From Nanobdellota archaeon (GTDB lineage Archaea; Nanobdellota; Nanobdellia; Pacearchaeales; GW2011-AR1): 44,246 nucleotides of DNA. The position numbers were made by a program, and so were the translations under genes. The notes beneath the pieces were generated by a model that was not told the origin of the DNA, did no database searches, and saw only the letters and a list, made by a program, of their open reading frames with translations. Positions within the stretch are counted from its first letter, which is position 1. Each line of letters starts with the position of its first letter. Positions 19,535 to 41,530 of the stretch are shown here, one piece after another. The stretch covers positions 1-44,246 of the forward strand of contig JBBSXH010000070.1 in NCBI GenBank assembly GCA_038045865.1, given 5' to 3'.

Positions 19535-19536
19535 TT

Positions 19537-19731: not shown

Positions 19732-19753
19732 AGATTATCAAGGATAAAGTAAA

Positions 19754-19782
19754 TTTATAAAGTTTATTAAGGTGAGATAAAC
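19754..19782 (+). promoter_or_regulatory. queC upstream region: TATA-like TTTATAAAGTTTATTA plus GGTGA 7 nt before the ATG
   Basis: The sequence is TTTATAAAGTTTATTAAGGTGAGATAAAC-ATG. The A/T box lies about 26 nt before the ATG, compatible with a leaderless transcript, or GGTGA acts as a Shine-Dalgarno-like site. The related AAAAGTTTATTGGTGA occurs at 30114-30129 before the HD gene. Confidence 0.4.
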
Positions 19783-20475
19783 ATGAAAAATGCTATTATT
19801 TTGTGTTCAGGCGGGTTAGATAGTGTTGTAACTGCCTATTATGTGAAAAATAGACTTAATTATGATAATCTAATTATCTTATTTTTTAATTATAGTCAAA
19901 AATCTATTCTAAAAGAAAGAGAATTTAGTAAGAAATGTGCTAAGGATTTGAATGCAAGATTCATAGAAATTGATTTAAAATGGCTTGGTAAAATTTCAAA
20001 TTCTTTAGTAAATAAATTAGGAAAAGTAAAAAAGATTTCAAAAAATAGTTTAAAAAACACAAAAAAAGAAAGTGAAAATTTTTATGTACCTTTTAGAAAT
20101 ACTATTTTTATCTCATATGCTATCGCCTTAGCAGAATCTATATTCTTTAAAGAAAAAATGAAATACAATATTTTTTTAGGTTTTAAAAATGAGGGTAAAG
20201 AAAGTTTTCCAGATACAACTATAAAATATGTAAATGAGGTTAACAGGCTAAGTAAAATTGCAACAGCTGGTTTTAAAATTTTGACTCCTTTAATTAAAAA
20301 GGATAAAGAAGATATAATAATTTTAGGCAATAAATTAGGAGTAGATTTTAGAAAAACTTATAGCTGTTATATTGGAAAAAGATTTCACTGTGGTACCTGT
20401 CTTGCATGTAAATTAAGGCAAGCAGGATTTTACTGGGCAAACATAAGTGACCCTACAAAATACAAAAATCAGTAA
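19783..20475 (+). CDS. queC: 7-cyano-7-deazaguanine synthase (QueC/ExsB family)
   Basis: A PP-loop AIILCSGGLDSVV sits at the N-terminus, followed by YVPFRNTIF. The C-terminal zinc motif is SCYIGKRFHCGTCLACKLRQAGF (C...CxxCxxC). Confidence 0.75.
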   Translation: MKNAIILCSGGLDSVVTAYYVKNRLNYDNLIILFFNYSQKSILKEREFSKKCAKDLNARFIEIDLKWLGKISNSLVNKLGKVKKISKNSLKNTKKESENFYVPFRNTIFISYAIALAESIFFKEKMKYNIFLGFKNEGKESFPDTTIKYVNEVNRLSKIATAGFKILTPLIKKDKEDIIILGNKLGVDFRKTYSCYIGKRFHCGTCLACKLRQAGFYWANISDPTKYKNQ

Positions 20476-26588: not shown

Positions 26589-27542
26589 TTATAATTGATT
26601 ATTTAAAATTAATCTATTAGAACTCTGATAGAATTTTATGTCAACACTAGTATGCCCAAGTTCTTGTTTATAATTTGTTTTTACTTTAACATCACAGGGA
26701 TGACATTTTCCATAATTTAAACATTTTAGATATTCTGGTTTTATTTCAAAGTTTGGATCAAGAATATTTCCAGTAGGGAATTCTTCATTGAATAAATCCC
26801 TATGACATTTATGTACATTTCCATTAGGAGCAATTAATAATTCAGAAGTTTTACATAAACAAGATTTAAGCTTAGAACTATTGATAGAACCAAGATATTT
26901 TGAATAATCCCCATAAGTAATACTAAAATCTCTTTTTAAATCATCTTTTCCTTCATATTTCCCTGTAAATTCTTTCAATCTAAAATCAATTCCAGCATCT
27001 TTGCATCTGAACTGCATCTGATTTATTGCAGAAAGTTGTTCAGGACTTGGATAAAGTACAGACCATATGCCTATACTGAATCCAGCATCTTTTAATAATT
27101 CTGTTTTTTTTACTAAATCTTCACCATTACCCATTTGTTCTGGATGATATGAAACCCTTATGGATGCATAAGGAGAATTTCTCTTAATTCTCTCAGGATT
27201 AACTTCCTGAATAAACTTTTCAATTCCTTTTTTACCCCATTTTAAATTTGTTAATATGTCTATATTTAATTCTGGTTTTAGATTATTTAATATATATGTA
27301 AAGTCCTTATGTAAAAATACTTCGCCACCACTAAATGTTACAGGAACATCAGGTTTTGATTCTATTTTATTTAGAGCATTAACCCATTCTTCACCAGAAA
27401 TTTCAAGAAATTTATTTCTATTAAATTCTTTACCCTTGTCTAAGGAATTTAAGCAAAAACTACAGTTAAGATTGCATCTCATTGTGAGAAATGCACAAAT
27501 ATATTTGTATTCTTCTGGGATTTTTATCCTTTTTTTTTGCAT
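26589..27542 (-). CDS. Radical SAM enzyme with Cys-rich C-terminus
   Basis: The CX3CX2C motif is LTMRCNLNCSFC, followed by the GGE motif FSGGEVFL. The C-terminal cysteines are CLCKTSELLIAPNGNVHKCHRD and CLNYGKCHPCD (SPASM/twitch-like). Confidence 0.75.
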   Translation of the reverse strand: MQKKRIKIPEEYKYICAFLTMRCNLNCSFCLNSLDKGKEFNRNKFLEISGEEWVNALNKIESKPDVPVTFSGGEVFLHKDFTYILNNLKPELNIDILTNLKWGKKGIEKFIQEVNPERIKRNSPYASIRVSYHPEQMGNGEDLVKKTELLKDAGFSIGIWSVLYPSPEQLSAINQMQFRCKDAGIDFRLKEFTGKYEGKDDLKRDFSITYGDYSKYLGSINSSKLKSCLCKTSELLIAPNGNVHKCHRDLFNEEFPTGNILDPNFEIKPEYLKCLNYGKCHPCDVKVKTNYKQELGHTSVDIKFYQSSNRLILNNQL

Positions 27543-27595: not shown

Positions 27596-27994
27596 TTAAC
27601 TGAAAATTTTATCTTTATTTTTTAAAATAAATGTTTTAAGAGTTGGAGGTAAAAGGAGTTTATTTAGTTTTTCAAAAGCAAATATTCCTATATTTTGCCC
27701 CTCATAAAATTTTATATTTTTAAAGTTTTCAAAAAAATTTCCTTTAAAATAAAATATTTTACAATTAGATAGATTATCAATTGCTTCTCCTAAAAAGGAA
27801 ATATTGCAAACTCTACAGCTTATTTCTTCGTTTATCTCTCTTTTTATAGCTTCAAGAGGAGTTTCATTGTTTTCAATTTCTCCTCCGATTTCTGCCCAAT
27901 AATTTGGATAAGGAATTTCTGGTTTATTGTCTCTTAAACAAAGTAAAACTTCTTTTTTAGGATTCAAAAGAAGGATTTTAGAGATTTCTTTCAT
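27596..27994 (-). CDS. Nudix hydrolase
   Basis: A complete Nudix box is present: GGEIENNETPLEAIKREINEEI (G-x5-E-x7-REUxEE). Confidence 0.8.
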   Translation of the reverse strand: MKEISKILLLNPKKEVLLCLRDNKPEIPYPNYWAEIGGEIENNETPLEAIKREINEEISCRVCNISFLGEAIDNLSNCKIFYFKGNFFENFKNIKFYEGQNIGIFAFEKLNKLLLPPTLKTFILKNKDKIFS

Positions 27995-28035: not shown

Positions 28036-29094
28036 TTAAAAAAAATTATCTTGGTGGTTTGGATGATTAACTCTTTCAAGATATCGATTAATAGAATCTA
28101 ACCTACAACCCTTCCTACATTCTTGAATACCTTGCCCCCTTAATCTCTTGAGAATTTCTTTTCTTTTTTCCCCTTCCCAAATTTCGCTGAAGGTATTTTT
28201 ATATAGATTACCATAATTAAAATTTTCATTATCATGAAAAAGATTACATGGGATTATATTCCCTTTTGCTTCTATCAGTGTAAAAAATGAAAGCCCATAA
28301 CATTCAGGATATTTTCTTTCAGAGTCTAATCTTTCTGCAGTTGCTTTCCTGAATAATATTTTAAAATCCGCAGAATTATATTTCTCCAGTTTCTCTCCGA
28401 TGTGATTATATTCTATAGGATTAACATACAGATTATTAAGACTATTTGGATGATGAGAATAAGGTTTTATTTGAAGATTATCTGCCCCAATATCTTTTAA
28501 TTTTTCTGCTAATTTTTCTGATTGATATATATTTTGTGGAATCATTAAAAATTGAGTACCGATTGTTGTTTTTAGATTATGTTTATTTCTATAAATTACA
28601 GCTTCTTTTATATTATTAATAACTTTTTCAAAATCTTTTGGATTTGTTCCATGAACTTTTGCATAATTTTTAGGTTCTCCAGAATCTATACTAAATCTTA
28701 TCCAAGAAAGATTTGGTAAGCATTGTTCTCTTTTCTTTTGTGTAAAAGCTACCCCATTAGTAGTAATAGCTATGTCTAACCCATATCCTTTTGCTTTTTG
28801 AGTAAATAATCCTATATCTTTATGTAAAAGAGGTTCCCCCTCCCCTGCAAACATAATTGATTTTACCCCATGATTTGCCATATTTTCTAATGTTGAAATC
28901 ATTATTTTTGTGTCAATCATATCTGTCCCATTTTCTAAAAAATCAAGTGCACAAAATACACACCCATGATTACATCGATTAGTAGGACCTATTTCTACAT
29001 AGATTGGATAACAATCCCCTTTTTCTTTCCATTCGGCGACTCTCTCGGGATGGTACATTAATTTATGATTATCTACTTCTATCTTGGGTCTCAT
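28036..29094 (-). CDS. Radical SAM enzyme, member of a three-paralogue set (about 355 aa)
   Basis: The CX3CX2C motif is GPTNRCNHGCVFCA, followed by FAGEGEPLL. The C-terminal cysteines are CYGLSFFTLIEAKGNIIPCN and CRKGC. It is collinear with 34178-35263 and 37395-38456. Confidence 0.8.
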   Translation of the reverse strand: MRPKIEVDNHKLMYHPERVAEWKEKGDCYPIYVEIGPTNRCNHGCVFCALDFLENGTDMIDTKIMISTLENMANHGVKSIMFAGEGEPLLHKDIGLFTQKAKGYGLDIAITTNGVAFTQKKREQCLPNLSWIRFSIDSGEPKNYAKVHGTNPKDFEKVINNIKEAVIYRNKHNLKTTIGTQFLMIPQNIYQSEKLAEKLKDIGADNLQIKPYSHHPNSLNNLYVNPIEYNHIGEKLEKYNSADFKILFRKATAERLDSERKYPECYGLSFFTLIEAKGNIIPCNLFHDNENFNYGNLYKNTFSEIWEGEKRKEILKRLRGQGIQECRKGCRLDSINRYLERVNHPNHQDNFF

Positions 29095-30089
29095 TTTAAT
29101 TTAATACCTCTAATTTTAGCTTCTGCCTTATTTAATCTATCTTTAAATATATTCATAGAGTTATTATTACTAAATTTAAGATGTTCCATATATTTTGGAG
29201 AAAGGATATTTAAATATATTAATCCCCAAGTCATAGCAATAAGAGGATTAGCAACACTAATTCTAAAATCAAAAAATTCAGAAGTATTTCTTTGAGATTT
29301 ATATTTTTTTAAAAAAAGATTTTTTAAATTATCTGAAATGTTTGAAGATTTATCATGATGCATAAAATCAAGAATCTGCCTTACAGGATCATCTCTTCCA
29401 AAATATTCAAAATCTAAAAATTTATACTCTTTTCCATCATAGAGAATATTATGAAAACCAAAATCTCCAGGAGTAAGAACCTGCTCCTCTAAATTTAATT
29501 CTTTAAAGATATCAACTCCCAAAGTTTTGTTAAAGAAGAATTCCTTTACTTCAACTATTTTTAGGTGTACCTCTTTATCAAGAAAAATTTTTGCTTTCTT
29601 TCCTATAGGACTATCTTCATTATATTCTTTTATGTTATTAAACCTTCTATCAATTACATCAATATAATTCTTAAGATTCAAACATGCAGAAGAAGCAGGT
29701 CCAAAATCCTGTTTGTTTACCTTTAGATTATGTAATTTTACTAAGAAACTAACAGCACCCAAAATATTTTCTTCTTTAATTTCAAAGTGGTTAAGATTAA
29801 ATCCTTTCTCAAAAGAATAAACTCCTATGTTTTTAGATCCATTAAATTTAATAGGTCGAGGAATATTTCTGAATCCAGTTTTCCAAAGATAATTTAATGC
29901 CTTAAATTCAGAATAACCTCTATTCCAATTTTCTAAATGAATTTTAGAATATTCTTTAATTAAATATTTTGTGTTATCCTTAAGAGTAATACTAAATAGT
30001 TTGTTGTTCCCATTATGGTCTAATCTTTTAAGACTGGAAATATTCTTATCAAAATATTCTTGAAATAGGTCTAATGAATCAGTAGGCAT
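29091..30089 (-). CDS. APH/choline-kinase-fold phosphotransferase (putative sugar or small-molecule kinase)
   Basis: The catalytic loop and Mg site read LTPGDFGFHNILYDGKEYKFLDFEYFGRDDP (D-x4-N, then DFE). Its stop overlaps the downstream radical SAM start as ATGA. Confidence 0.65.
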   Translation of the reverse strand: MPTDSLDLFQEYFDKNISSLKRLDHNGNNKLFSITLKDNTKYLIKEYSKIHLENWNRGYSEFKALNYLWKTGFRNIPRPIKFNGSKNIGVYSFEKGFNLNHFEIKEENILGAVSFLVKLHNLKVNKQDFGPASSACLNLKNYIDVIDRRFNNIKEYNEDSPIGKKAKIFLDKEVHLKIVEVKEFFFNKTLGVDIFKELNLEEQVLTPGDFGFHNILYDGKEYKFLDFEYFGRDDPVRQILDFMHHDKSSNISDNLKNLFLKKYKSQRNTSEFFDFRISVANPLIAMTWGLIYLNILSPKYMEHLKFSNNNSMNIFKDRLNKAEAKIRGIKLK

Positions 30090-30113
30090 TACGCTTTTAA
30101 AAAGGTAAGATTT

Positions 30114-30129
30114 AAAAGTTTATTGGTGA
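30114..30129 (+). promoter_or_regulatory. Upstream motif AAAAGTTTATTGGTGA, 10 nt before the HD-domain gene ATG
   Basis: It has the same AAAGTTTATT..GGTGA arrangement as the region upstream of queC. Confidence 0.35.
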
Positions 30130-30139
30130 TTTAAAATAT

Positions 30140-30934
30140 ATGGATGAAATTAAGAAAGCAAGTATTCTTTTAGATGAAATCCTACCAGATTTAATAAGAG
30201 AAATTGCTACAAACTCTAAAGTTGTTCAATTTCAAGAGAACCCAGATTTCTTAGAAGAACGACTTGTAAAATGGCATCAATTTGGATTATTAACTCATAC
30301 AAGGAATGTAAAAAGAGCTTTTTATGAAGAAGCACCAAAACTAATTAATAGCTGGGGCTTAGAGAATAAATTAAAAGAGAGACTTAATCAAAAAGTTTCA
30401 GAATCTACTAAATATGAACTTTTTGATATAAGTATCACTCTTCATGATCTGGGAAAAATAATTTGTTATTATAATTCTTCAAAAAATAGATGTCATGAAG
30501 AAGAATCTGCAAATCTAATTAAATATTTTGAAAAAAGGTTAATTAACTTGGGTTTATCTCCCAATTCTATAACTAAGATAACTAGATACATTAAAACTCA
30601 TGATGTAGTTGGAAAGGAAATAAGAGATAATCTAACTGAAACCGGAAAATTTTCATTTAGTAGGTTATTAGAATCCTCAACTAAACATTTATGCCAAAAA
30701 ATTGCAAAAAAATATTCAGATGTAGATTTAGAAATAGGATTTTATTTTCTTTGTGATTCTTTAGGTAAAACAGACTTAAGAATTAATGCAAAAGAAGACT
30801 TAGACATATTAAGCTCAAAAGAATCTGTTATTAAAATTATTAAACAAAGAAATCTTAATCAAAAAATAATTTATGCTGCAAATCAATTACCTTTAAATGT
30901 AAAATTAGCTGAAGTTTATTTAAACAGTTTATAA
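30140..30934 (+). CDS. HD-domain protein (putative phosphohydrolase)
   Basis: The spaced His/Asp pattern is WHQFGLLTHTRNV, ITLHDLGK and IKTHDVVGK. Confidence 0.5.
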   Translation: MDEIKKASILLDEILPDLIREIATNSKVVQFQENPDFLEERLVKWHQFGLLTHTRNVKRAFYEEAPKLINSWGLENKLKERLNQKVSESTKYELFDISITLHDLGKIICYYNSSKNRCHEEESANLIKYFEKRLINLGLSPNSITKITRYIKTHDVVGKEIRDNLTETGKFSFSRLLESSTKHLCQKIAKKYSDVDLEIGFYFLCDSLGKTDLRINAKEDLDILSSKESVIKIIKQRNLNQKIIYAANQLPLNVKLAEVYLNSL

Positions 30935-31483
30935 TTTATCTTTTTTTAAACTAATAAAGGTTGGTTTTTTATGTTGATAGGATTCTATTAAAGCAGTTCT
31001 TGTTTCGATAGAATTTTTTGGGAAATAATTTACAATATTTCTCTCATAGGTAATTCTTTTTAAAAATTCTTTTTCTAAATCCAAATTATTTTTTAATGAA
31101 TCAGAATAAACAGATTTACCTACTAACCCCATTAAGATTTCTGCATCTAATTCAGAATGAGTTAATCCTTGTTTAGGATAATCTGCATAACCAATTAACT
31201 TGACATTTACATTTTGTTGATTTACATTTAGTTTAATCTGTTCAAATGCCCTTTCAATAAGAAAAGGAGTTATAGTATAAACATAGGGTTTTAATCCTTC
31301 TAAGGCCATCCCTGATGCAAAACTAACCATACTTTGCTCTCGGATACCTAAATTAATAAATCGGTTTGAAAATTTTTGCCTAAACTCATCAAACACTCCA
31401 TAGCCAATATCTCCTATTATAAGATATATCTCATTATCTTTTTCAGCTAATTCAATAATTGTTTTTCCAAATTCTTTTCTCAT
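30929..31483 (-). CDS. Transketolase-like ThDP enzyme, pyrimidine-binding (C-terminal-type) subunit, short form
   Basis: MRKEFGKTIIELAEKDNEIYLIIGDIGYGVFDEF...NLGIREQSMVSFASGMALEGLKPYVYTITPFL matches the Pyr domain of split transketolases. The protein is only 184 aa. Confidence 0.7.
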   Translation of the reverse strand: MRKEFGKTIIELAEKDNEIYLIIGDIGYGVFDEFRQKFSNRFINLGIREQSMVSFASGMALEGLKPYVYTITPFLIERAFEQIKLNVNQQNVNVKLIGYADYPKQGLTHSELDAEILMGLVGKSVYSDSLKNNLDLEKEFLKRITYERNIVNYFPKNSIETRTALIESYQHKKPTFISLKKDKL

Positions 31484-31485
31484 CT

Positions 31486-32223
31486 TTAACTCCTGTTCAA
31501 TTCTTCATATGCTTTCTTTACTCTTTCAAGAGTAACTTTTCTACCATGCCATTCTGGATTATTTTCCATATAACTTACTCCTTTTCCCTTAATAGTGTGT
31601 GCAATTATCATGTAAGGTTTTCCTTCTGGTTTTTGTTCTAAAACAGGAATTATCTCTGAAAAATCATGTCCATTTATTTCTGAAACATACCAACCAAAAG
31701 TCTTAAATTTATCTGCTAAGTTCATTGTAGATACATCTTTGGTTTTATCTAATGCTTGGACCTTATTAAAATCTACAATTGCAGTTAAATTATCTAAATT
31801 ATGATAAACTGCAATATCTGAAGATTCCCAAGTAGTTCCTTCTTGACATTCCCCATCTCCTATCAAAACATAAATTCTACCAGGTTTTTCTTGTTTTTTT
31901 CTTGCAAATGCCATTCCGACACCTATTGGAAGACCATGTCCTAAACTTCCAGTTGTACAACAAACTCCATTATCTATATCAATATCTGGATGCATGGTTA
32001 TTTTAGGATCATACCCTTTTTCTTGAAGTAATAAATAGAAGGGATAACAAGCATGCCCTTTACTTAAAATAAATTTATCTTGTTTTGTTAAAATTTTATC
32101 ATATAATGAAATGAGAAGCTCTATTTCTGAAAAACTTCCTCCTAAATGCCCTTCTCCAGTTTTTAATGCTAAATCTAATGTTTTTAATCTTAAATTTTTA
32201 GCTTTTTTTTCTAGGTTTTCCAT
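31486..32223 (-). CDS. Transketolase-like ThDP enzyme, diphosphate-binding (N-terminal-type) subunit
   Basis: GEGHLGGSFSEIELL, SKGHACYPFY and the ThDP motif VLIGDGECQEGTTWES...NLDNL are present. Confidence 0.8.
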   Translation of the reverse strand: MENLEKKAKNLRLKTLDLALKTGEGHLGGSFSEIELLISLYDKILTKQDKFILSKGHACYPFYLLLQEKGYDPKITMHPDIDIDNGVCCTTGSLGHGLPIGVGMAFARKKQEKPGRIYVLIGDGECQEGTTWESSDIAVYHNLDNLTAIVDFNKVQALDKTKDVSTMNLADKFKTFGWYVSEINGHDFSEIIPVLEQKPEGKPYMIIAHTIKGKGVSYMENNPEWHGRKVTLERVKKAYEELNRS

Positions 32224-32230
32224 ATGTTAA

Positions 32231-32893
32231 TTATTCAAAATAAATAAATTCAAAATCTCCTTTATAATTAAATTCTTTAAATAACCATTTCCACTCATCT
32301 GGTGTAAAAAAAGAAGCACATGTCAAAGCCCAACATTGTAGATTAAATAATTCTTTTTCATTTCTAAAACTTTCAACAGCAATATATTTGTTTTTACCTA
32401 CTCTTTCTATTTCTTGCAAGGATTTTTTTAAATCTCCTATCTGAAGATTATGTAAAGTAGTTATTGAGGTAACTAAATCAAACTCCTTTGACTTAAATGG
32501 ATATCTATCTCGTGCATTATGAATAAAAAGATACTCTTTTATCTCTTCTTTAGAATTTTGAATTGCATAATTAGAAATATCAAACCCTGATAAATTACTA
32601 TTCGGAAGAATTTTTTTAAATTCATACAACAAAAAACCTTTTCCACAACCTACATCTAAAATTTTAGCACCATCTTTTAATTCATAATGTTCAATTAATT
32701 TTTTTGCTATTGATTCTTGTCTGCCATCATACTTATAACCTCCATAACCATATATTCTATCTCCGTCCCAGAAATCCTTCCCATATTTCTTTGCAATTTT
32801 CATACATTCTACTTTATTATTATTCATACGACCAATATAATCTCTCTGAGTACTCTTATGTAAAGGATTTATAATATTTAATAAATTTCCCAT
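32231..32893 (-). CDS. Class I SAM-dependent methyltransferase
   Basis: Motif I is ILDVGCGKGFLL, followed by LSGFDIS and LVTSITTLHN. Confidence 0.75.
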   Translation of the reverse strand: MGNLLNIINPLHKSTQRDYIGRMNNNKVECMKIAKKYGKDFWDGDRIYGYGGYKYDGRQESIAKKLIEHYELKDGAKILDVGCGKGFLLYEFKKILPNSNLSGFDISNYAIQNSKEEIKEYLFIHNARDRYPFKSKEFDLVTSITTLHNLQIGDLKKSLQEIERVGKNKYIAVESFRNEKELFNLQCWALTCASFFTPDEWKWLFKEFNYKGDFEFIYFE

Positions 32894-33100
32894 TATAAAA
32901 ATCTATTATTTTGATTTATAAAGATTTATATGAAATAAGACCTTGTTAATTTTCGAGATGTTGAAAATAATTATTATAGGTAAGGGCTATTTAGTCTAAT
33001 GACAATAAGTTATCTTATTTCAAAAATAAAAACTAATTCTAAACACAAAACGCTTCAAAAGAGTGGTTTGATTTAATTGATAATTTTAATTTATTTAATG

Positions 33101-33124
33101 TTGATACCACAAATATTGATACCA
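33101..33124 (+). promoter_or_regulatory. Direct repeat TTGATACCA x2 upstream of the radical SAM/SPASM gene
   Basis: TTGATACCA occurs at 33101-33109 and 33116-33124 (15-nt period), 39-62 nt upstream of the ATG at 33163. Confidence 0.3.
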
Positions 33125-33162
33125 TAATAATCTTTATAAACTTCTCTACATAAAAACCTAAA

Positions 33163-34125
33163 ATGGCAAATTCTCAAGAAATAACTAAAAGAGAATTAAT
33201 ATCTATGAAAGATAGACTGGGCCTAGAAGATTTATCCAACTCTCTTTATTTTCCAAAATATTTTGAAATAGAAACTATTCGTGGATGTAATGCCCATTGC
33301 ACTATGTGTACAATACAAGAATGGAACAATAAAAATAATAAGATGGATGATTATTTGTTTAATAAATTTTTAGAAGAAGTAAGTACTTATAATAAATGGG
33401 TAAATAGAGTATGTTTATCGAGGAATGGAGAACCATTAATGGACAAAACAATTGCTAAAAAAATTTATAGACTTAAGGATGCTGGAATAAACTACACAAT
33501 GATTTCTACAAATGCTTCTTTACTAAATGAAAAGAGAGCTATTGAAATTATCGATTCAGGATTGGATGATATAAGATTTTCTATTGATGGAGTAACGAAA
33601 GAAACCTTTGAAAAAATTAGAAAGGGATTAAATTATGAAAATGTTCTTGAAAATTGTTTAAGATTTATTGGTTTAAGAAATAGTAAGGGAACAAAACCCA
33701 TTATTCAAGTAAGAATGGTTTTACAAAATGAAAATAGAGATGAAGAAGAAAGGTTTAAAGAATTTTGGTTATCTAAAGTTTCGAATCAGGACATTGTTTC
33801 CTCAAAATCAATGAATAGTTGGGGGAATCAATTAAAAACTTATGAAAGACCAAGTAGTGAATCAGAAAAGTATTCGGATATGCCTTGTATTTCCCCTTGG
33901 TCAACTATGGTAGTGCATTTTGATGGTGCAGTTCCTTTATGTGGATGTGATTATAACAACAAAATACTCATGGGAGATTTAAATAAAAATACCATAAAAG
34001 ATATTTGGCAATCAAAGAACTTTGAAGAAATACGAAAAAAACATGCTTCTGGTAAAAGAAATAATATTGAACTTTGTAAAGGCTGTAATATTTGGGATCC
34101 TGAAATAAAAAAGGTTTATGATTAA
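33163..34125 (+). CDS. Radical SAM / SPASM-like domain enzyme
   Basis: The CX3CX2C motif is ETIRGCNAHCTMC, followed by SRNGEPLM. The C-terminal region MPCISPWSTMVVHFDGAVPLCGCD ... ELCKGCNIWD follows the SPASM-type Cys pattern. Confidence 0.8.
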   Translation: MANSQEITKRELISMKDRLGLEDLSNSLYFPKYFEIETIRGCNAHCTMCTIQEWNNKNNKMDDYLFNKFLEEVSTYNKWVNRVCLSRNGEPLMDKTIAKKIYRLKDAGINYTMISTNASLLNEKRAIEIIDSGLDDIRFSIDGVTKETFEKIRKGLNYENVLENCLRFIGLRNSKGTKPIIQVRMVLQNENRDEEERFKEFWLSKVSNQDIVSSKSMNSWGNQLKTYERPSSESEKYSDMPCISPWSTMVVHFDGAVPLCGCDYNNKILMGDLNKNTIKDIWQSKNFEEIRKKHASGKRNNIELCKGCNIWDPEIKKVYD

Positions 34126-34177
34126 ATTATAATGTGACTACCATAATGCTTTTATACCTTAATCTAGAAGTTTTTAT

Positions 34178-35263
34178 ATGAGTGGACAAAATACAAAACA
34201 ACCTTATGGAGAATTAAAAATAATTTGGCATCCTGAAAAATTAGAAGCATTATTAAAAGGAGAAATCTCTGCACCAATAGCAATAAGGATTAAACCAACA
34301 AATAAATGTGACCACAGATGTTTTTTTTGTTCTTATAATCCTGAAGCAAAAAATCTACTTTCTGAAGAAATAAATTTAAATGATGAAATCCCTCAAGAAA
34401 AAATGATGGAAGTTTTGTCTGACCTTGGAGAAATGGGAGTTAAAGCAGTTACATATTCTGGAGGAGGAGAACCTTTAATTTACCCACACATCATTCAGAC
34501 TTTTAAAAAGACTTTAGATAATAAATTAGATTTATCAATTATTACTAATGGACAAAGACTTTCAGAAGAGCGAGCAGAATTATTAACTCAGGCAAAATGG
34601 GTGAGAATTTCTGCAGATTATTGTGATATAAGCACATTTGTACAATCTAGAAGAATTACAGAAAAATCTTTTGATAAATTAAAAGAAAATATCAAAAAAT
34701 TTGCTAAGATAAAAAATTTAGAGTGTGAATTAGGGATTAATTTTATTGTGCACCATATGAATCAAGATAAAGTTTATGAAGCAGCTAATTTCTTTAAAGA
34801 TTTAGGAGTTAATCATATAAGATATGCTCCTCGTTGGATGGAAGAAGGATGGGAAAAATATCATACCTCTTTTAAAGAAAATGTAATAGAACAAATTAAA
34901 AAAGCAAGACAAGACCTTAATGACGAAAGATTTAAGGTTTACGATGTTTATGAAAAAGACCTAAATAATCCAAAAATAATTGAAAGACCATATTCAAAAT
35001 GTTCAATAATGCAAATTGTTCCAGTTATTGCAGCAGATTCTGCAGTTTATTTTTGTCATGATAAAGCTTATACAAAAAACGGAAGATTAGGTTATATAAA
35101 AGAACAATCATTCAAAGATTTGTGGTTTAGTAAAGAATCTAAAGAAAAATTTAAAAATTTTGATGCAAAAGTTGAATGCAAACAACATTGTGTTTATGAT
35201 GGTAAAAATAGTCTTATAGAAGAGATAATTAATAGTCATGGAAATCATGTAAATTTTATCTAA
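34178..35263 (+). CDS. Radical SAM enzyme, paralogue 2 of the approximately 355-aa set
   Basis: The motif KPTNKCDHRCFFCSY is followed by YSGGGEPLI. The C-terminal cysteines are CSIMQIVPVIAADSAVYFCHD and CKQHC. It ends with HVNFI. Confidence 0.8.
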   Translation: MSGQNTKQPYGELKIIWHPEKLEALLKGEISAPIAIRIKPTNKCDHRCFFCSYNPEAKNLLSEEINLNDEIPQEKMMEVLSDLGEMGVKAVTYSGGGEPLIYPHIIQTFKKTLDNKLDLSIITNGQRLSEERAELLTQAKWVRISADYCDISTFVQSRRITEKSFDKLKENIKKFAKIKNLECELGINFIVHHMNQDKVYEAANFFKDLGVNHIRYAPRWMEEGWEKYHTSFKENVIEQIKKARQDLNDERFKVYDVYEKDLNNPKIIERPYSKCSIMQIVPVIAADSAVYFCHDKAYTKNGRLGYIKEQSFKDLWFSKESKEKFKNFDAKVECKQHCVYDGKNSLIEEIINSHGNHVNFI

Positions 35264-35282
35264 TCTTTGATTTAACTGTAAA

Positions 35283-36155
35283 TTGAAAAACGAAAAAATA
35301 TTTATTTTTGGAGCCTCTGGATTTATTGGAGGATATTTATTTAATCATTTAAAAAATAAATGTAAAAAAGTAACTGGAACTTATAACCAAAATAAGAAAC
35401 CGGAATTGATTTTTTTTGATACTGCTAATTCTTCTATTGAAGAACTTCCTTTGGATAATGTTAAGTATGGAGTTATATGTTCTACTTTAGCTAATATAGA
35501 CTCTTGTATAAAAGATTTAAATTATTCTAACAAGGTTAATGTTACTGGACTAGAAAAAGTTATTACAAAACTTGTGAAAAAAGATATAATCCCGGTTTTT
35601 ATCTCTTCTGGAGCAGTCTTTGATGGTTTAACAGGAGGATACAAAGAAAATGATTTGAGAAATCCCAAAAATATCTATGGAATACAAAAAAAACAAATGG
35701 AAGATTTTATGATATCTAATCTTAAAGATTATCTTATATTAAGGATAGGAAAAGTATTTGGGATTAACAAAAGAGACAATGGAAAAATATTTATGGATTG
35801 GATTGAAAAATACAAAAGAAATGAAGAGATTAAATGTGCTTATGATGAAGAACTATCATTAACTTCTATTGAAGATGCAGTTAAATGTATAGAGGTTTTA
35901 TTAGATCAAAACAAAAGAGGGATTTTTCATATAGACTCTGGAATTCATAAGAGTAGATTCGACTTTGCAAAAGATTTCTTTGATTATCTAAAAATTAAAG
36001 ATGCAAATTTAATCAGATGTTCCTTAGACGATTTTAATTTTTCAGATAAAAGAGCAAAAAAACCTTATTTGGATTCTTCAAAAGTTATTAAGGAAATAGG
36101 ATTTTCATTTACTTCTTTAGACAGATATTATGAGATTATTAAAAACCAGATTTAA
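35283..36155 (+). CDS. NAD(P)-dependent SDR, RmlD-like (dTDP-4-dehydrorhamnose-reductase family) reductase
   Basis: IFIFGASGFIGGYL provides the GxxGxxG motif and NIYGIQKK provides YxxxK. The size and layout are those of RmlD. The ORF starts at a TTG. Confidence 0.7.
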   Translation: MKNEKIFIFGASGFIGGYLFNHLKNKCKKVTGTYNQNKKPELIFFDTANSSIEELPLDNVKYGVICSTLANIDSCIKDLNYSNKVNVTGLEKVITKLVKKDIIPVFISSGAVFDGLTGGYKENDLRNPKNIYGIQKKQMEDFMISNLKDYLILRIGKVFGINKRDNGKIFMDWIEKYKRNEEIKCAYDEELSLTSIEDAVKCIEVLLDQNKRGIFHIDSGIHKSRFDFAKDFFDYLKIKDANLIRCSLDDFNFSDKRAKKPYLDSSKVIKEIGFSFTSLDRYYEIIKNQI

Positions 36156-37089
36156 TTTCCTTTGCAATCATTTCAGGAAAAATATTATTTATACAAGATT
36201 GGTCATATTTTAAGCATTTAGAATTAAAACACGGAAGACAATCATACTCTCCTCTAGGTAAGATAGTCTTGCCACGATTATAAAAATATATTTCTTTATG
36301 GGATGTTGAACTAAACAAACCAATAACATTTTTTTTAAGTGCAAGTGCAAGATGCAACCCTAAACTATCATTTGTCACCAATGTTTTGCAAGAATTTATC
36401 CAGTCTATATATCCTTCTAAATTTTTTGTTACTTTGTCTCCTTGATTTTCTTGTCTTGAAACAGAATAATGGTCTTTAAGCAAATCTTCTAATTCATCCC
36501 AATTTTCCATAGACCATTTTTTAGAAGGCCATTTACTTCCTATTTGACTGTTAAAACCAATATCATAAACTTCTTGAGTTTTAGGCTTGTAACCTAAAAT
36601 ATACTCTTCACCATTAAATTTTTCTCCAACCATTTCAAATAAAAGATCTTGAAATGTTCGCTCATTACCCTTTTTATATTTTGGATTAAAACTTACTGCG
36701 AGAACTTCATAAGCATTATCTAAAGCTTCTGCTTCACCAGTCTGAGTGTTAAATGTAAATCCATATCTGCTTCTTCTTGCACGGATTTTATCAGACAAAG
36801 CACAAATTCCAGGGACTTTTTCTAAGTTTATAATTTTATCAAATTCTTCAGATTCCAATTGCAGAGTAGTTAACAAATCAAAAGTTAATAGCCTACTAAT
36901 ATAAGAATTATTATTTAAAAGGGGTTTAGCTTCTTCAGAAGTTACCCAAGTAACTTGATGATTATTATATTTATGAAGTAAAGAAGTGGTTCTTAACACA
37001 TCCCCTAGACTAACTATCCGGCTATTTTGATCTCCATCCAAAATTTCAGTATATCCTGTCTTTATAATTAAAATTTTCTGTTTTTCCAT
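36139..37089 (-). CDS. GT9 family glycosyltransferase (second heptosyltransferase-like paralogue)
   Basis: KILIIKTGYTEIL...SLGDVLRTTSLLHKYNNHQVTWVTSEEAKPLL and the C-terminal CKTLVTNDSLGLHLALALKKNVIGLF mirror 16459-17445. Confidence 0.65.
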   Translation of the reverse strand: MEKQKILIIKTGYTEILDGDQNSRIVSLGDVLRTTSLLHKYNNHQVTWVTSEEAKPLLNNNSYISRLLTFDLLTTLQLESEEFDKIINLEKVPGICALSDKIRARRSRYGFTFNTQTGEAEALDNAYEVLAVSFNPKYKKGNERTFQDLLFEMVGEKFNGEEYILGYKPKTQEVYDIGFNSQIGSKWPSKKWSMENWDELEDLLKDHYSVSRQENQGDKVTKNLEGYIDWINSCKTLVTNDSLGLHLALALKKNVIGLFSSTSHKEIYFYNRGKTILPRGEYDCLPCFNSKCLKYDQSCINNIFPEMIAKEIKSGF

Positions 37090-37267
37090 ATTTAATTAAA
37101 ATATTAAATTTACCAATTAAATTACCTATTTTCTTATAAAAGTTTGATGAATTAAGGTTTTTAACCTTTTATATTCTCAAAGAGGTAGTAAAATAATAGA
37201 CATATGATTTATCAATTATTATTAAAGACAGGTTATAGAATATTTATTTTCAAGGTCTTAATACTGA

Positions 37268-37384
37268 GAAAATTAAGTTTGCGTAAACTCCTTACTTTAG
37301 TTTGCGAGAAAACAAACTTAATTTTCGAGGTGCTCAAGAACCATACTTATTAACACGCCATACACTTTGGTGTATGGTTCTTGA
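37268..37384. other. Structured spacer: a 14-bp and a 13-bp perfect stem plus a competing 8-bp hairpin
   Basis: GAAAATTAAGTTTG (37268-37281) pairs with CAAACTTAATTTTC (37313-37326). TCAAGAACCATAC (37334-37346) pairs with GTATGGTTCTTGA (37372-37384). The alternative hairpin CCATACAC (37358-37365) / GTGTATGG (37370-37377) re-uses the same 3' strand. Confidence 0.5.
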
Positions 37385-37394
37385 CATTTAAATT

Positions 37395-38456
37395 TTATAA
37401 AAAATTAGAATGAATTATTGGATTTTTTATTGAATACAATAATTCTATATTTTTTTCAAATTGGCAAGGATTTGGACAGTCTACTAAATTTATTTTATTT
37501 TTAATCTCCCCTCTTTCTTCAGATAACCATATTTCTTTAAAAGATTTTTTTTTCAGATCACCAAAACAATATTTTTCATTTCCTTTTAAAGCACAACAGA
37601 GATAAACTTTTAAATCAGCAGTTATTGAAGTAAGAAAATCTGGAAAATAACATTTATTATAATTTCTTTTTACATCCCCTTCTATTAATTCATATTCACA
37701 ACGATTAAGAGGATATGAAACTGAAAATTTATCATTTTCTAGCTCTTTACATTCCTCTAATTTTTCAATCATCCTCTCTGCTTGTTTTGGGGTAAAATTT
37801 CTTTTTTTCCCACGATTAAGAAAAGGCCTGAATCTTATATAATCCATTCCCAATTCTTTAGAAATTTTAGTTGCATTATAAATCCCTTCAATTGAATGCG
37901 AACCAATCAAATAACAAGCCCCAATAACAATATCACTCTTGTTTTCTTCCTTTGCATTTACCAATCTAGAAATATTTCCAATAACTTTAGAAAAAGCATC
38001 CCCCCTCATACCATGAGTTTTTTTGTAAATTTTAGGTCCATCTGCATCTAAACTTATTCTCGCCCAGGTACAAGAATCCACTATTGAATCTATAACCCCC
38101 TCAGAAAGTTCGTAGCAATTAGTATAAATTGCAGATTCCATTTTTTTGGATTTAACAAATCTTAAAATTTCTTCTAAATTTAGATTACATGAAGGTTCGC
38201 CACCACCCCCAAACCCAATTGCTTTTACATCAACTTCTTTTAATTGTGAAAGAATATTCTTTGCATCAGTTAATTTAACAACTGTAGAATCAAGATTTTT
38301 GGAACCATTACATAGGGGACAATGATTATTGCATTTATTTGACAAATCAAAGTCTACAAAAACAGGATAGGTGGTTTCTCCTTTTTCCCAATTAACTAAT
38401 CTATTAAAATGGTTTAGTAATTTATATTGACTATAGATATTTTTATTTAAGCTCAT
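37395..38456 (-). CDS. Radical SAM enzyme, paralogue 3 of the approximately 355-aa set
   Basis: The motif DLSNKCNNHCPLCNG is followed by FGGGGEPSC. The C-terminal cysteines are CYFPDFLTSITADLKVYLCC and CPNPC. It ends with HSNFL. Confidence 0.8.
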   Translation of the reverse strand: MSLNKNIYSQYKLLNHFNRLVNWEKGETTYPVFVDFDLSNKCNNHCPLCNGSKNLDSTVVKLTDAKNILSQLKEVDVKAIGFGGGGEPSCNLNLEEILRFVKSKKMESAIYTNCYELSEGVIDSIVDSCTWARISLDADGPKIYKKTHGMRGDAFSKVIGNISRLVNAKEENKSDIVIGACYLIGSHSIEGIYNATKISKELGMDYIRFRPFLNRGKKRNFTPKQAERMIEKLEECKELENDKFSVSYPLNRCEYELIEGDVKRNYNKCYFPDFLTSITADLKVYLCCALKGNEKYCFGDLKKKSFKEIWLSEERGEIKNKINLVDCPNPCQFEKNIELLYSIKNPIIHSNFL

Positions 38457-38601
38457 TTTAAATCTAATTTGATAGACTTTTTATTAATTTATAATCTTTT
38501 GTATAATTAAGAATATGGTAAAATAATTATGACTTTGTTTGATTAGTATTGTTAAAAATATATGATAAGTTATAAACATAGTTTAAAAAGTATATTTTGT
38601 A

Positions 38602-39477
38602 TTGGATTTTATGATTTTAGTTATTGGAGGATCTAGTTATATTGGAAGTAAATTGTATAAACATTTTTCTAAGAAAGAAAAATTAGCTATAGGAACATAT
38701 TACAATTCTTATAGAAAGGGTCTTGTTTATTTTAATTTAGAAAATCCTAATATTAATAATCTACCAATAGACCTAAAAAGAGTAGATTATGCAGTAATTT
38801 GTTCTGCAATTACTAATATAGACTCATGCAAAAAAAATGAAGAAAAAGCATATAAAATTAATGTTGAGGGAACTAAAAAAACCATAGAACAATTTTTTGA
38901 TAAAAATATTTTCCCGATTTTTCTTTCTTCAGGATATGTTTTTGATGGAAAGGATTCTAATTATTCAGAAAGCGATAAACCAAATCCATTAACTGCTTAC
39001 GGAAAACATAAAAAGATAATTGAAGATTTTTTATTTAAAAGTAAAAGAGATTTTTTAATAACTAGAATAAGTAAAATTTTTGGCCTGGAATGTGAAGATA
39101 AAACCCTTCTTACTTCAGGGATTAAACAATTAACTAATAATGAAATTATAACTTGTGCATCAGATCAAATATTTTCTCCGACTTATGTTGGAGATTTTGT
39201 TGAAGTACTTGACTCTGCAATAGAAAAGAAATTAACAGGATGTTATAATATTGCTTCCCCAGAATTTATGAGCAGATTTCAATTAATAACAATGCTTAAA
39301 TCCCAATTAAAAATAAAATCTGGAAAAATAGTCCCCTGTTCTATTTTAGATTTTAAATTTTCAGATTCAAGACCATTAAATACTAGTTTAAATCCTAAAA
39401 AAATTATTAAAGATACCGGTTTTAAATTCACTAACCTTGAAGATTGTATAAGTAAATTAGAGATTCTTGTTAAATAA
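38602..39477 (+). CDS. NAD(P)-dependent SDR, RmlD-like reductase (paralogue of 35283-36155)
   Basis: ILVIGGSSYIGSKL and TAYGKHKK (YxxxK) are present, and the protein is collinear with 35283-36155 along its whole length. The ORF-track start is a TTG at 38602; an ATG at 38611 is an alternative. Confidence 0.7.
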   Translation: MDFMILVIGGSSYIGSKLYKHFSKKEKLAIGTYYNSYRKGLVYFNLENPNINNLPIDLKRVDYAVICSAITNIDSCKKNEEKAYKINVEGTKKTIEQFFDKNIFPIFLSSGYVFDGKDSNYSESDKPNPLTAYGKHKKIIEDFLFKSKRDFLITRISKIFGLECEDKTLLTSGIKQLTNNEIITCASDQIFSPTYVGDFVEVLDSAIEKKLTGCYNIASPEFMSRFQLITMLKSQLKIKSGKIVPCSILDFKFSDSRPLNTSLNPKKIIKDTGFKFTNLEDCISKLEILVK

Positions 39478-39485
39478 ATTTGTTT

Positions 39486-40064
39486 CTATTTTTTGCTAAA
39501 AATATTTAAAGAACAGGGAGTCTTGCAGGATTTATTATTGCATGTTAAATCCATAAAATCTACATAGTTTTTTAGCATCTTAGAATAATTAAATTTAGGA
39601 GGGATATGTTTTTTCTTTTCAAAAGGGCCCTGTGTTGTTTCTCTATAAATAACATAATCTTTTAAGGCAAAATAAACATGATAATTATTTCTAGGTATTC
39701 TAAGGATCAAATTATTATCTTGCCCTAAAATTACTTTTTCTTTTAATTCTCCAGAGTCATTTAAAATAAAGGCTACTAAATCTCCTTCAATAGCGTGCAG
39801 GGTTTCATCATTTGTTGGATGCATATGAGGTTTCCTACAATTTTTATCTTGATATTGCAAAATAATCATATCATGAAGTGTTTCATTGCTATTGCTATGT
39901 AAACACAATCTAATGTTTGCATTTTTATTCTCTTTGGATATCTCTTTGAGTTCTGTCAAGAGAGCTCCATTGACTTTTATTGGAGATGTTTTAGCAAAAT
40001 AAGCTAAAGATTTTGCTTTTTCATCAAACCACCAATCATTTGAATTTATCTGTTTTGATATCAT
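39486..40064 (-). CDS. WbuC-family cupin-fold protein
   Basis: IRLCLHSNSNETLHDMIILQYQDKNCRKPHMHP...ETLHAIEGDLVAFILNDSGE matches the WbuC-type cupin pattern. I prefer the Met at 40064; the ORF-track start at 40127 would overlap the upstream radical SAM gene by 52 nt. Confidence 0.55.
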   Translation of the reverse strand: MISKQINSNDWWFDEKAKSLAYFAKTSPIKVNGALLTELKEISKENKNANIRLCLHSNSNETLHDMIILQYQDKNCRKPHMHPTNDETLHAIEGDLVAFILNDSGELKEKVILGQDNNLILRIPRNNYHVYFALKDYVIYRETTQGPFEKKKHIPPKFNYSKMLKNYVDFMDLTCNNKSCKTPCSLNIFSKK

Positions 40065-40075
40065 TTTATTAAAAA

Positions 40076-41530
40076 TTAATCGTAGTCTACTTTTGTTCCA
40101 GCAGTCCTTCTTGTAGATTTTCTCCATTTATCAACTTCATCCAAAGTAATACCATTCATTTCTGCTATTTTCTTTATCTTTTCAGGGCGACTAAAACAAA
40201 TTCTATCCCATTCATAGGCCCTTACAATTTGAAGCTCCTGAGGAGTAAATTCAGGAGTAGTTATAGTTGCTCTTCCAAAACCCCTTGTATCCACATTATC
40301 AAAGCTAAAATTTTCTGAAAGAAAATTACCTTCTTTAGCAATTTGATAAAGTTTTGTTTTAGGAAGAGGTGTTGCGATATTGAAGGAATAACAATCTAAA
40401 TCTAATTCATCTGCTAATTTAAATGAGTTTCTAATTTCTTCCCAGGTTTCCCCAGGAGTGCCTATAACAAATAGGCCTGAAAGTTGGAAATCCAAAGAAC
40501 GAGCTTTTTTAACAATTGGTTTTATCTTCTTTAAAATGCTAGTAGGTTTATTTAATCTTTTCAATCCTTCAAGATTACCTGACTCTATTGCTAAGATTAG
40601 TTGATATCCTCCGCTAGCTCTAGTAAGTTCTAAAATCTCATCATTTAAAGCATAAACTGCTACACTTGGATTTTTCCATTCTAAATCATGTTTTCTTTCT
40701 ATTAAGCCATTCATAATAATTTTAACTCTTTTGTGGTCTAAAAAAAAGTTATCATCCATAAAAATTATTTCTTTTACTCCTTTTTCATCAACAAGCCAAT
40801 CAATTTCCTTAAGCACTGATTCTGGAGAACGATATCGTATTTTAGGACCATTAATTACTTTACTGCTACAAAAGATACAATTAAAAGGGCAACCTCTTGA
40901 AGTTATTGTATTTGCATATGGTAATCTTCGAGGATATACAAAATAAGAATATTTATTTGTAGTATTTGCATAATTATTAAAATCCAGATTATCATAATTT
41001 GGAAGAGGTAGTGCATCTAAATCCTGAATATAACTTTCAACTTTGTTAATTTTAATATCTTCTCCTAAACGAAGAGCAATTCCCTCCATATCATTAACAT
41101 CTTCATTTTTTTCTAATTTTTCTAATAACTTTGGGAATCTATACTCTCCTTCACCAAGAACAGCATAATCAATATTTTTATCGTGCATTATTACTTCAGG
41201 TAAAAGTGTTGGATAAATTCCTCCAACAATCACAGGAGTTTTTGGATATACTTCTTTTACAAGAGCAGTCATTTTTTGAAATTGTCTTGCATATTCCATA
41301 GACATACAAGTCAAACCAAAAACATCAGGATTATAATCGTTTATTCTTTGTTTTACTTGTTCAAAATTTAAATTTTCAAAACCAGCATCCAATATCTTTA
41401 CTTCATATTTGTCTTTTAATACTGAATTAAGAACCCCGAAAGTATAAGGGAAATTATGCCAATGACGATTATCAAACCAAGCATCATTTGGTGCCGCTAA
41501 CATTATTTTTTGTAGATTAGATTCTTTCAT
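40076..41530 (-). CDS. B12-binding-domain radical SAM enzyme
   Basis: The N-terminal domain reads KIMLAAPN...VIVGGIYPTLLP...AVLGEGEYRFPKLL. The CX3CX2C motif is ITSRGCPFNCIFCSS. Confidence 0.85.
   Translation of the reverse strand: MKESNLQKIMLAAPNDAWFDNRHWHNFPYTFGVLNSVLKDKYEVKILDAGFENLNFEQVKQRINDYNPDVFGLTCMSMEYARQFQKMTALVKEVYPKTPVIVGGIYPTLLPEVIMHDKNIDYAVLGEGEYRFPKLLEKLEKNEDVNDMEGIALRLGEDIKINKVESYIQDLDALPLPNYDNLDFNNYANTTNKYSYFVYPRRLPYANTITSRGCPFNCIFCSSKVINGPKIRYRSPESVLKEIDWLVDEKGVKEIIFMDDNFFLDHKRVKIIMNGLIERKHDLEWKNPSVAVYALNDEILELTRASGGYQLILAIESGNLEGLKRLNKPTSILKKIKPIVKKARSLDFQLSGLFVIGTPGETWEEIRNSFKLADELDLDCYSFNIATPLPKTKLYQIAKEGNFLSENFSFDNVDTRGFGRATITTPEFTPQELQIVRAYEWDRICFSRPEKIKKIAEMNGITLDEVDKWRKSTRRTAGTKVDYD

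Follow-up and report, generated by a model that had tools for sequence, protein, structure and literature searches.

Three radical SAM paralogues of a DPANN glycan locus and their association with a split transketolase and heptose-activation genes

With which proteins do the radical S-adenosylmethionine (SAM) enzymes of a DPANN surface-glycan locus work, and on what do they act? The question is raised by a 44,246-nucleotide stretch of a Nanobdellota genome (contig JBBSXH010000070.1 of assembly GCA_038045865.1), called here the window, in which three paralogous open reading frames (ORFs) encode radical SAM proteins: 28036-29094 on the minus strand (352 aa), 34178-35263 on the plus strand (361 aa) and 37395-38456 on the minus strand (353 aa). 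Homologues of window proteins are designated below by the first coordinate of the window gene (28036 type, 34178 type and so on). The initial annotation of this locus had paired two of the three with neighbouring RmlD-like short-chain dehydrogenases/reductases (SDRs) and had proposed a duplicated module acting like AprD4/AprD3 on two positions of a sugar. A survey of many genomes gave a different picture: the core radical SAM enzymes have one another as conserved partners, together with a split transketolase, a methyltransferase and an HldE-like enzyme. We consider it about as probable as not (roughly 0.5) that the paralogues belong to a clade of twitch-type radical SAM enzymes, two of which form the core pair of a cassette with transketolase, methyltransferase and heptose-activation genes that builds a tailored sugar.

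The distribution of the three subfamilies was established by genome scans run separately for each of them. A profile of the three matched 2,632 clusters at 50% identity (E <= 1e-30). Among species-representative genomes, 411 stretches from DPANN archaea and numerous bacteria encode the 34178 type, with identities of 44-61%. It is very common in DPANN archaea (Nanoarchaeota, Pacearchaeota, Woesearchaeota), and bacterial homologues at 44-52% identity occur in Lachnospiraceae, Butyrivibrio, Selenomonas ruminantium, Eubacterium plexicaudatum, Bacteroides, Syntrophomonas, Planctomycetales and Omnitrophota. The 37395 type (81 homologues) is less common and mostly confined to DPANN archaea. Homologues carry generic annotations such as "radical SAM protein".

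To count neighbours, ORFs were called in the fetched loci and classed by similarity to the window proteins, using the 80 best-scoring loci anchored on the 34178 type and 27 loci anchored on the 37395 type; an SDR was scored as present when it lay within 10 kb of the anchor. The N-terminal subunit of a transketolase was present in 69 of the 80 34178-type loci and directly followed the radical SAM gene in 47 of them. The pyrimidine-binding (pyr)/C-terminal subunit was found in 61 loci (directly adjacent in 2), a 28036-type radical SAM gene in 60 (directly adjacent in 40), a 32231-type methyltransferase gene in 58 (directly adjacent in 10) and an HldE-like kinase/nucleotidyltransferase gene in 55 (directly adjacent in none). 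The 28036-type homologues of these loci scored 300-560 bits and the methyltransferase homologues 250-370 bits. In bacteria the usual operon order is HldE-like, 28036 type, 34178 type, transketolase N, transketolase C and methyltransferase. The window holds the same set rearranged between positions 28036 and 35263, in the order 28036 type, APH-like kinase, HD-motif protein, transketolase pyr, transketolase N and methyltransferase, then on the opposite strand 33163 type, 34178 type and SDR. The core pair of radical SAM enzymes in this cassette, which DPANN archaea share with many anaerobic bacteria, is formed by the 28036 and 34178 types.

The transketolase of the window is encoded by two minus-strand genes. 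The N-terminal, thiamine diphosphate (ThDP)-binding subunit (31486-32223) matches NF004559 with 196 bits over residues 1-244 and carries the GDG...DFN ThDP motif; a GIREQ motif is also legible in the transketolase translations. The pyrimidine-binding subunit (30929-31483, 184 aa, PF02779) is without the TK_C domain that is present in the pyr/C subunits of bacterial cassettes (303-316 aa). Against the full-length cutoff of 488 bits for NF004559, the two halves score 196 and 53 bits in the window and 277 and 222 bits in bacterial cassettes. Another core member is a class I SAM methyltransferase (32231-32893, minus strand, 220 aa) that matches methyltransferase families of Pfam. Two further genes of this interval have weak matches. 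A candidate APH-like kinase (29091-30089, minus strand; APH(3') E 0.003, PF01636 E 0.09) is found with the transketolase in loci L010, L013, L014, L008 and L128, and a 264-aa HD-motif protein (30140-30934, plus strand; PF01966 HD E 0.09) is a possible phosphohydrolase.

Several cassette proteins are fused to one another. The transketolase pyr domain is joined to the 34178 type in three proteins (P0093, P0109, P0117), to the 28036 type in locus L013, to the methyltransferase in L018 and to the 30140-type protein in L128, and the APH-like kinase is joined to the transketolase N subunit in L092. In other clade members the fusion partner is a methyltransferase, a DegT sugar aminotransferase (P0273) or one or more extra radical SAM domains. 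Long fusion products were treated cautiously, because they derive from metagenome gene calls. As no neighbour is better conserved than the transketolase subunits, which also occur fused to both core radical SAM types, the two catalysts might be coupled directly: a sugar aldehyde, ketone or radical produced by the radical SAM enzyme would be captured by the ThDP carbanion of the transketolase and the chain extended or branched, for instance from a heptose to a nonose. Such a coupling would fit the acceptance of aldehydes by transketolases, the formation of carbonyls by the SPASM/twitch dehydrogenases anSME and BtrN, and the absence of the usual C-terminal domain from the archaeal pyr subunit. 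By their scores, the bacterial transketolase halves nevertheless resemble an ordinary transketolase, operon adjacency alone can yield fusions, and simple supply of sedoheptulose 7-phosphate is the more economical explanation, since the transketolase lies beside GmhA-, GmhB- and HldE-like genes. We therefore regard direct coupling as unlikely. Its most specific form, in which a carbonyl or radical on a nucleoside diphosphate (NDP)-heptose is captured by a dedicated transketolase to give a new higher-carbon surface sugar, is quite unlikely.

The SDRs proposed as partners are encoded on the plus strand at 35283-36155 and 38602-39477. They are mutual paralogues of RmlD type, as had been claimed (38.6% identity, E 1e-62; PF04321 104.5 and 129 bits), and the best Protein Data Bank matches of the second are RmlD entries; both fall below the cutoff of 224 bits for RmlD itself (TIGR01214, 101.7 and 131.1 bits). 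The YxxxK motif described earlier is present in both (YGIQK, YGKHK), and the GxxGxxG motif is intact in 35283 (GASGFIG) but reads GxxSxxG in 38602 (GGSSYIG). In the window, 34178 is followed by 35283 and 37395 is divergent from 38602, an arrangement that suggested that each radical SAM enzyme and its neighbouring SDR form a deoxygenation or epimerisation module and that two modules act on two positions of one sugar. An SDR directly followed by a 34178-type gene indeed recurs in L088 and in the DPANN loci L008, L015, L128 and L129, and when DPANN loci are anchored on the SDR the 34178 type often directly follows it (L128, L129, L008), the order in L128 being 33163 type, SDR, 34178 type. An SDR also immediately follows a 37395-type gene in the bacterial locus L009, and on plasmid pDCAR1 a radical SAM/SPASM gene is followed by one for an NAD(P)-dependent oxidoreductase. 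The DesII-like fold of the paralogues, described below, is a further point in favour of such a module.

The counts do not bear out the module as a conserved unit. An SDR was found in 21 of the 80 34178-type loci and directly adjacent in 2, and in 2 of the 27 37395-type loci and directly adjacent in 1; 28036 has no SDR partner at all. Seen from the 25 RmlD-like SDR genes of these loci, the most frequent neighbours were the 40076-type B12-domain radical SAM gene (8), the 33163-type radical SAM gene (6) and a gene for a WbuC cupin (3), and the paralogues lay beside them less often (28036 type 3, 34178 type 2, 37395 type 1). SDRs are enriched near the paralogues, as the co-occurrence proposed earlier would have it, but they are not constant partners. 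The association between SDR and 34178 type is facultative, which makes the SDR an accessory tailoring enzyme rather than the defining partner of the paralogues. The divergent pair was also reinterpreted: a gene for a GT9-family glycosyltransferase (36139-37089, minus strand; heptosyltransferase family) lies on the same strand as 37395, downstream of it, which places 37395 with this gene and not with SDR 38602. This protein belongs to GT9 (PF01075, 50.9 bits against a cutoff of 22, C-terminal part only) and scores 45 bits against a cutoff of 134.6 for the heptosyltransferase II equivalog. With these results, and with the AprD4 comparison given below, two modules of this kind acting on one sugar have become a doubtful explanation. 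GT9 genes of the 36139 type are repeatedly found beside a radical SAM gene elsewhere, namely the 37395 type in DPANN loci (L008, L095, L114, L116) and the 26589 type in Planctomycetales and Riflebacteria (L028, L036, L057, L071).

A separate set of genes accompanies the SDRs. In the window it spans 38602-41530 and comprises SDR 38602, a WbuC-family cupin (39486-40127, minus strand; TIGR04366 87.7 bits against a cutoff of 42) and a radical SAM protein with a B12-binding domain (40076-41530, minus strand; PF02310 and PF04055); the trio recurs in L011, L040, L068, L082 and L129. The cupin is a candidate sugar epimerase that would act with SDR 38602. Genes for RmlA, RmlB or RmlC equivalogs were not found in the window, in agreement with the initial annotation, yet partners resembling them are at hand in this cupin and in the HldE-like enzyme at 5638-7059. 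The best NCBIfam matches of the B12-type protein are a P-methyltransferase family, HpnJ and BchE. A phosphonate pathway, raised by the first of these, was dropped: the ThDP enzyme of the window is of the transketolase and not the phosphonopyruvate decarboxylase type, and no ORF of the window was suggestive of a phosphoenolpyruvate mutase, though not every ORF was scanned against Pfam.

The paralogy of the three radical SAM proteins withstood closer analysis. Pairwise BLASTP alignments extend over the full length with 25.6-27.2% identity (114-123 bits, E 1e-32 to 1e-35), confirming that the three are collinear paralogues, and the next local radical SAM protein, 33163-34125, scores 65 bits with 28036 and about 30 bits with 34178 and 37395. 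All three match PF04055 above the cutoff of 29.5 bits (61, 65 and 49 bits), which places them in the radical SAM superfamily, and PF13186 (SPASM) with 30-38 bits. The N-terminal stretches quoted in the initial annotation, the GEGEP/GGGEP motifs and the C-terminal tails HQDNFF, HVNFI and HSNFL (H-x-x-N-F-F in 28036) are all legible in the translations. The trio was described as the radical SAM genes of this span, which in fact holds five of SPASM/twitch type: 33163-34125 (plus strand; PF04055, and PF13186 with 53 bits), an accessory gene, and the divergent 26589-27542 (minus strand; PF04055 35.8 bits) complete the set.

Alignments of 25, 80 and 68 homologues show strict conservation of the CX3CX2C triad (in all of 80 aligned sequences), of the glycines of GGGEP and of exactly four further cysteines, and almost strict conservation of an N-terminal Lys/His and of the C-terminal His-x-Asn-Phe. 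Both the two C-terminal cysteine pairs and the unusual tail had been noted in the initial annotation. Among complete homologues, a tail of the form H-x(1,2)-N-[FY] is present in 63 of 64 proteins of the 28036 type, 58 of 81 of the 34178 type and 21 of 26 of the 37395 type, and the H-x-N-F tail is present in none of 16 of the 33163 type (the window protein included in its lack of it) and none of 6 of the 26589 type; it appears to be a shared derived character of the three subfamilies. The four extra cysteines are spaced C-X17-C ... C-X3-C (C275, C293, C334 and C338 in 34178). A full SPASM domain, with two auxiliary clusters, has a seven-cysteine motif, CX9-15GX4C ... CX2CX5CX3C ... C, whereas only four C-terminal cysteines are conserved here; this fits a single auxiliary cluster of twitch type, and each paralogue would hold one SAM cluster and one auxiliary cluster with four cysteine ligands.

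A neighbour-joining tree (Poisson distance, 200 bootstraps) of the five SPASM/twitch-type subfamilies recovered each of them in 200/200 bootstraps. Each orthologous group is 44-61% identical between archaea and bacteria, with about 25% identity between groups, and the three genes are ancient paralogues, each an old orthologous group. A recent local duplication of a radical SAM-SDR module was rejected, because each paralogue and each SDR has orthologues at 45-70% identity elsewhere, compared to 25-39% between paralogues. Three members of the same radical SAM clade (P0282, P0284, P0349) are interrupted by inteins with LAGLIDADG homing endonuclease domains.

The comparison with known enzymes points to carbohydrate chemistry. 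The AF2 models of 34178 and 37395 (predicted local distance difference test, pLDDT, 93.5 and 92.9) gave DesII (8hzv, 8hzy) as the top Foldseek match, with E values of 2.5e-17 and 7.6e-17 and query-normalised template modelling (TM) scores of 0.59-0.72, followed by SuiB, SkfB, BlsE, anSME, PqqE, viperins and MoaA, with BtrN at rank 30-34. By sequence, the nearest solved proteins were BtrN for 28036 (33 bits, E 2e-7, residues 32-138 only) and MoaA for 34178 (35 bits). Of the comparators named in the initial annotation, DesII by fold (34178, 37395) and BtrN by sequence (28036) gave the closest matches among solved structures and AprD4 did not. The sugar context assigned to the radical SAM genes was upheld. 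DesII is a thymidine diphosphate (TDP)-4-amino-4,6-dideoxy-D-glucose deaminase and TDP-quinovose dehydrogenase that acts on a nucleotide sugar via a carbinol radical, and its upstream partner is a DegT-type aminotransferase, the kind of domain that is fused to the clade member P0273. It abstracts the C3' hydrogen of the TDP-sugar, and the alpha-hydroxyalkyl radical leads to ammonia elimination or to oxidation to a ketone (PMC11434129). The paralogues share 14-17% identity with DesII and lie outside its family: scores against TIGR04426 were 50.8, 38.7 and 35.4 bits, for the N-terminal core of the 468-position model, versus a cutoff of 450. DesII has about 485 aa with an N-terminal extension, whereas the paralogues have about 355 aa with four extra conserved cysteines and the H-x-N-F tail. 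Judging from the models, they may function like DesII though outside the DesII family.

BtrN (4m7t), the 2-deoxy-scyllo-inosamine dehydrogenase, is a radical SAM enzyme with a twitch domain that oxidises a carbohydrate-like carbinol to a ketone. Its single auxiliary cluster, bound by four cysteines in the spacing C-X18-C ... C-X2-C, resembles the C-X17-C ... C-X3-C arrangement of the paralogues. BtrN differs from them in size (about 250 aa) and in its substrate, a free aminocyclitol rather than a sugar in a heptose/transketolase context.

AprD4, on which the initial annotation had modelled the paralogues, is a radical SAM diol dehydratase that works with the NADPH reductase AprD3 in the C3 deoxygenation of apramycin. 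Its family NF033070 (cutoff 500) was not among the 25 best NCBIfam matches of any paralogue, the 25th-ranked matches scoring 25-33 bits, and Pfam detected no B12-binding-like domain in the three. The model matches instead the B12-type protein 40076-41530 (59.9 bits versus the cutoff of 500), whose type is found beside the RmlD-like SDRs more often than any other. AprD4 itself is placed in the Rossmann/B12-like radical SAM network and does not bind cobalamin (PMC12931638). An AprD4-like assignment of the paralogues was rejected, as NF033070 lies outside their top matches and their radical SAM class is a different one. The underlying concept, in which a nicotinamide-dependent reductase acts on a sugar after a radical SAM enzyme, may still apply to the accessory module.

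Since SuiB, SkfB, anSME and CteB-like sactisynthases rank high in Foldseek and the partial NCBIfam matches include peptide maturases, the paralogues could be thought to mature a surface protein (flagellin or an S-layer protein) or a glycosyltransferase rather than to act on a sugar. Their architecture argues otherwise: with 350-360 aa and a start about 40 residues before CX3CX2C, they have neither a recognition element for ribosomally synthesised and post-translationally modified peptides nor an N-terminal extension, and they carry four extra cysteines rather than the seven of a full SPASM domain. The gene tables show no conserved small precursor gene, although no search was aimed at one, and the genes around them encode sugar-activation enzymes, transketolase, aminotransferases and glycosyltransferases. 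Together with the fusion to a DegT sugar aminotransferase, this makes a role as maturases highly improbable.

The bacterial cassettes stand in a heptose context. Upstream of the Selenomonas ruminantium cassette lie genes for a SIS protein resembling GmhA (95 bits), an SDR of extended, GalE/LegB/RmlB type and an HldE-like protein, and downstream of it a gene for a bona fide PseC aminotransferase. The HldE-like protein of the cassettes (about 510-523 aa; 7330-8901 in L070, with equivalents in 53 loci) has swapped domains, the nucleotidyltransferase preceding PfkB, which is the opposite order to that of canonical HldE and of the window gene 5638-7059. Counts over the surveyed loci are 23 for a GmhB-like HAD phosphatase (in L048, for example, with 162.5 bits versus a cutoff of 178), 34 for the SIS protein and 29 for a DegT aminotransferase. 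Butyrivibrio loci include Maf/MptE-like glycosyltransferases, a family that we take to glycosylate flagellin. A plasmid collection yielded one related annotated locus: on pDCAR1 of Solidesulfovibrio carbinolicus, it lies beside pseB and pseC and bears generic product names.

These genes resemble the ADP-heptose pathway (GmhA, HldE, GmhB, GT9), with GmhA-, GmhB- and HldE-like genes directly upstream of bacterial cassettes and an HldE-like and two GT9 genes in the window. The matches lie below equivalog cutoffs, with the exception of HldE domain II, and the pathway as known uses no radical SAM enzymes, transketolase or methyltransferase. In the window, the HldE-like bifunctional heptose-7-phosphate kinase/heptose-1-phosphate adenylyltransferase (5638-7059, plus strand) scores 452 bits against a cutoff of 521 (NF008454) and, for domain II, 182.3 bits against a cutoff of 181.5 (TIGR02199); it is encoded 21 kb upstream and likely provides the activation step. 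A likeness also exists to RmlC/RmlD and 6-deoxyheptose pathways, in which a cupin epimerase and a 4-reductase act on a 4-keto sugar: the SDRs share the RmlD fold, SDR 38602 adjoins the WbuC cupin, and bacterial cassettes have an extended SDR of 4,6-dehydratase/epimerase type. It differs in that an SDR is missing from about three quarters of the cassette loci.

ORF and domain scans of the 44 kb window (26% G+C) identified a dense surface-glycan locus. It encodes an AglB/STT3 oligosaccharyltransferase, a GT4-family phosphosugar transferase (GPT), GtrA, a PMT_2 protein, a flippase and, besides the HldE-like enzyme, GT2, GT4 and two GT9 glycosyltransferases. There are nine radical SAM genes in these 44 kb, five of SPASM/twitch type and four with a B12-binding domain.

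The most likely substrate that these enzymes tailor is a heptose-type nucleotide sugar destined for a surface glycan. In the proposed sequence of steps, the cassette would build a nucleotide-activated heptose or longer sugar, the transketolase furnishing a ketose phosphate. Activation to the nucleotide sugar would rely on the GmhA-, GmhB- and HldE-like enzymes in bacteria, and on the HldE-like enzyme, the APH-like kinase and the HD-motif protein in the window. The two core radical SAM enzymes would then abstract a carbinol C-H hydrogen to give a keto or keto-deoxy intermediate, either by a dehydrogenation of DesII/BtrN type, in which the auxiliary cluster would accept the electron, or by beta-elimination. 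If a carbonyl is formed, the recurrence of carbonyl-acting partners (transketolase, SDR and aminotransferase) would be accounted for. Methylation by the cassette methyltransferase would follow. Where the accessory module is present, its RmlD-fold SDR, WbuC cupin and B12-type and 33163-type radical SAM enzymes might reduce, epimerise or modify the sugar, and GT9 enzymes would install the finished sugar on the surface glycan. Direct observation covers the paralogy, the conservation of the neighbourhood, the fusion proteins, the likeness of fold and the setting in a glycan locus; from these we infer the substrate, the sequence of the steps and the chemistry that would form the carbonyl.

Several observations weigh against this proposal. 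SuiB, SkfB and anSME reach TM scores of 0.57-0.68, close to the 0.59-0.72 of DesII, so that the fold alone does not fix the substrate class. The DesII structure paper mentions no auxiliary cluster (PMC11434129), and the paralogues differ from DesII in having four extra conserved cysteines. Curated NCBIfam families do not claim the three paralogues, the best partial matches scoring 66-100 bits against cutoffs of 325-380. The split between {28036, 34178, 37395} and {33163, 26589} is present in the full tree, in keeping with the monophyly on which the initial annotation had staked its case, but it was recovered in 100/200 bootstraps only, and the rival grouping of 28036 with 33163 in 82/200. A GmhA-, GmhB- or 4,6-dehydratase-like gene is absent from the window. 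Finally, the transketolase could serve in precursor supply or act downstream on the product of the radical SAM enzymes.

Other genes of the window touch on the cassette to various degrees. A Nudix hydrolase gene (27596-27994, minus strand; PF00293) next to 28036 recurs in L004, L011, L016, L020 and L097. An IF-2B family protein (2650-3468; PF01008, 139 bits), of a family that includes ribose-1,5-bisphosphate and methylthioribose-1-phosphate isomerases, is encoded 2.2 kb upstream of the HldE-like gene. The four B12-binding-domain radical SAM proteins (12055-13485, 20492-22027, 40076-41530 and 42958-44181) are mutual paralogues (E 1e-12 to 1e-45). Between the last two lies a 423-aa ORF (41690-42961) that has no Pfam or NCBIfam match and recurs across many DPANN loci; it probably encodes a glycosyltransferase, as genes at the positions of its homologues bear a weak Gtf3_C annotation. 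A small non-glycan cluster (17482-20475) encodes a nucleoside 2-deoxyribosyltransferase-like protein, a Vut_1 protein (a putative vitamin uptake transporter in Pfam) and QueC, with a GT2 gene interposed. A 122-aa ORF (9528-9896, minus strand) lies wholly within the AglB gene on the opposite strand and is most likely spurious, a product of AT-rich sequence. A tRNA scan of the window found none.

The cassette is widespread, unannotated and apparently unstudied, and our literature search found nothing on it. For annotation, the results call for caution: adjacency of a radical SAM and an SDR gene in a single genome does not make a functional pair, and the conserved partners emerged only across many genomes. 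If worked out, the pathway would reveal a new surface or flagellar-glycan sugar of abundant gut and rumen anaerobes and of episymbiotic DPANN archaea, whose surfaces mediate attachment to the host, as well as anaerobic reactions on carbohydrates that are new for twitch-type radical SAM enzymes. It may also link radical SAM and ThDP catalysis. Direct action of the transketolase on the radical SAM product would, if true, be new chemistry, and such a partnership would imply a higher-carbon sugar common to DPANN archaea and the Firmicutes of gut and rumen.

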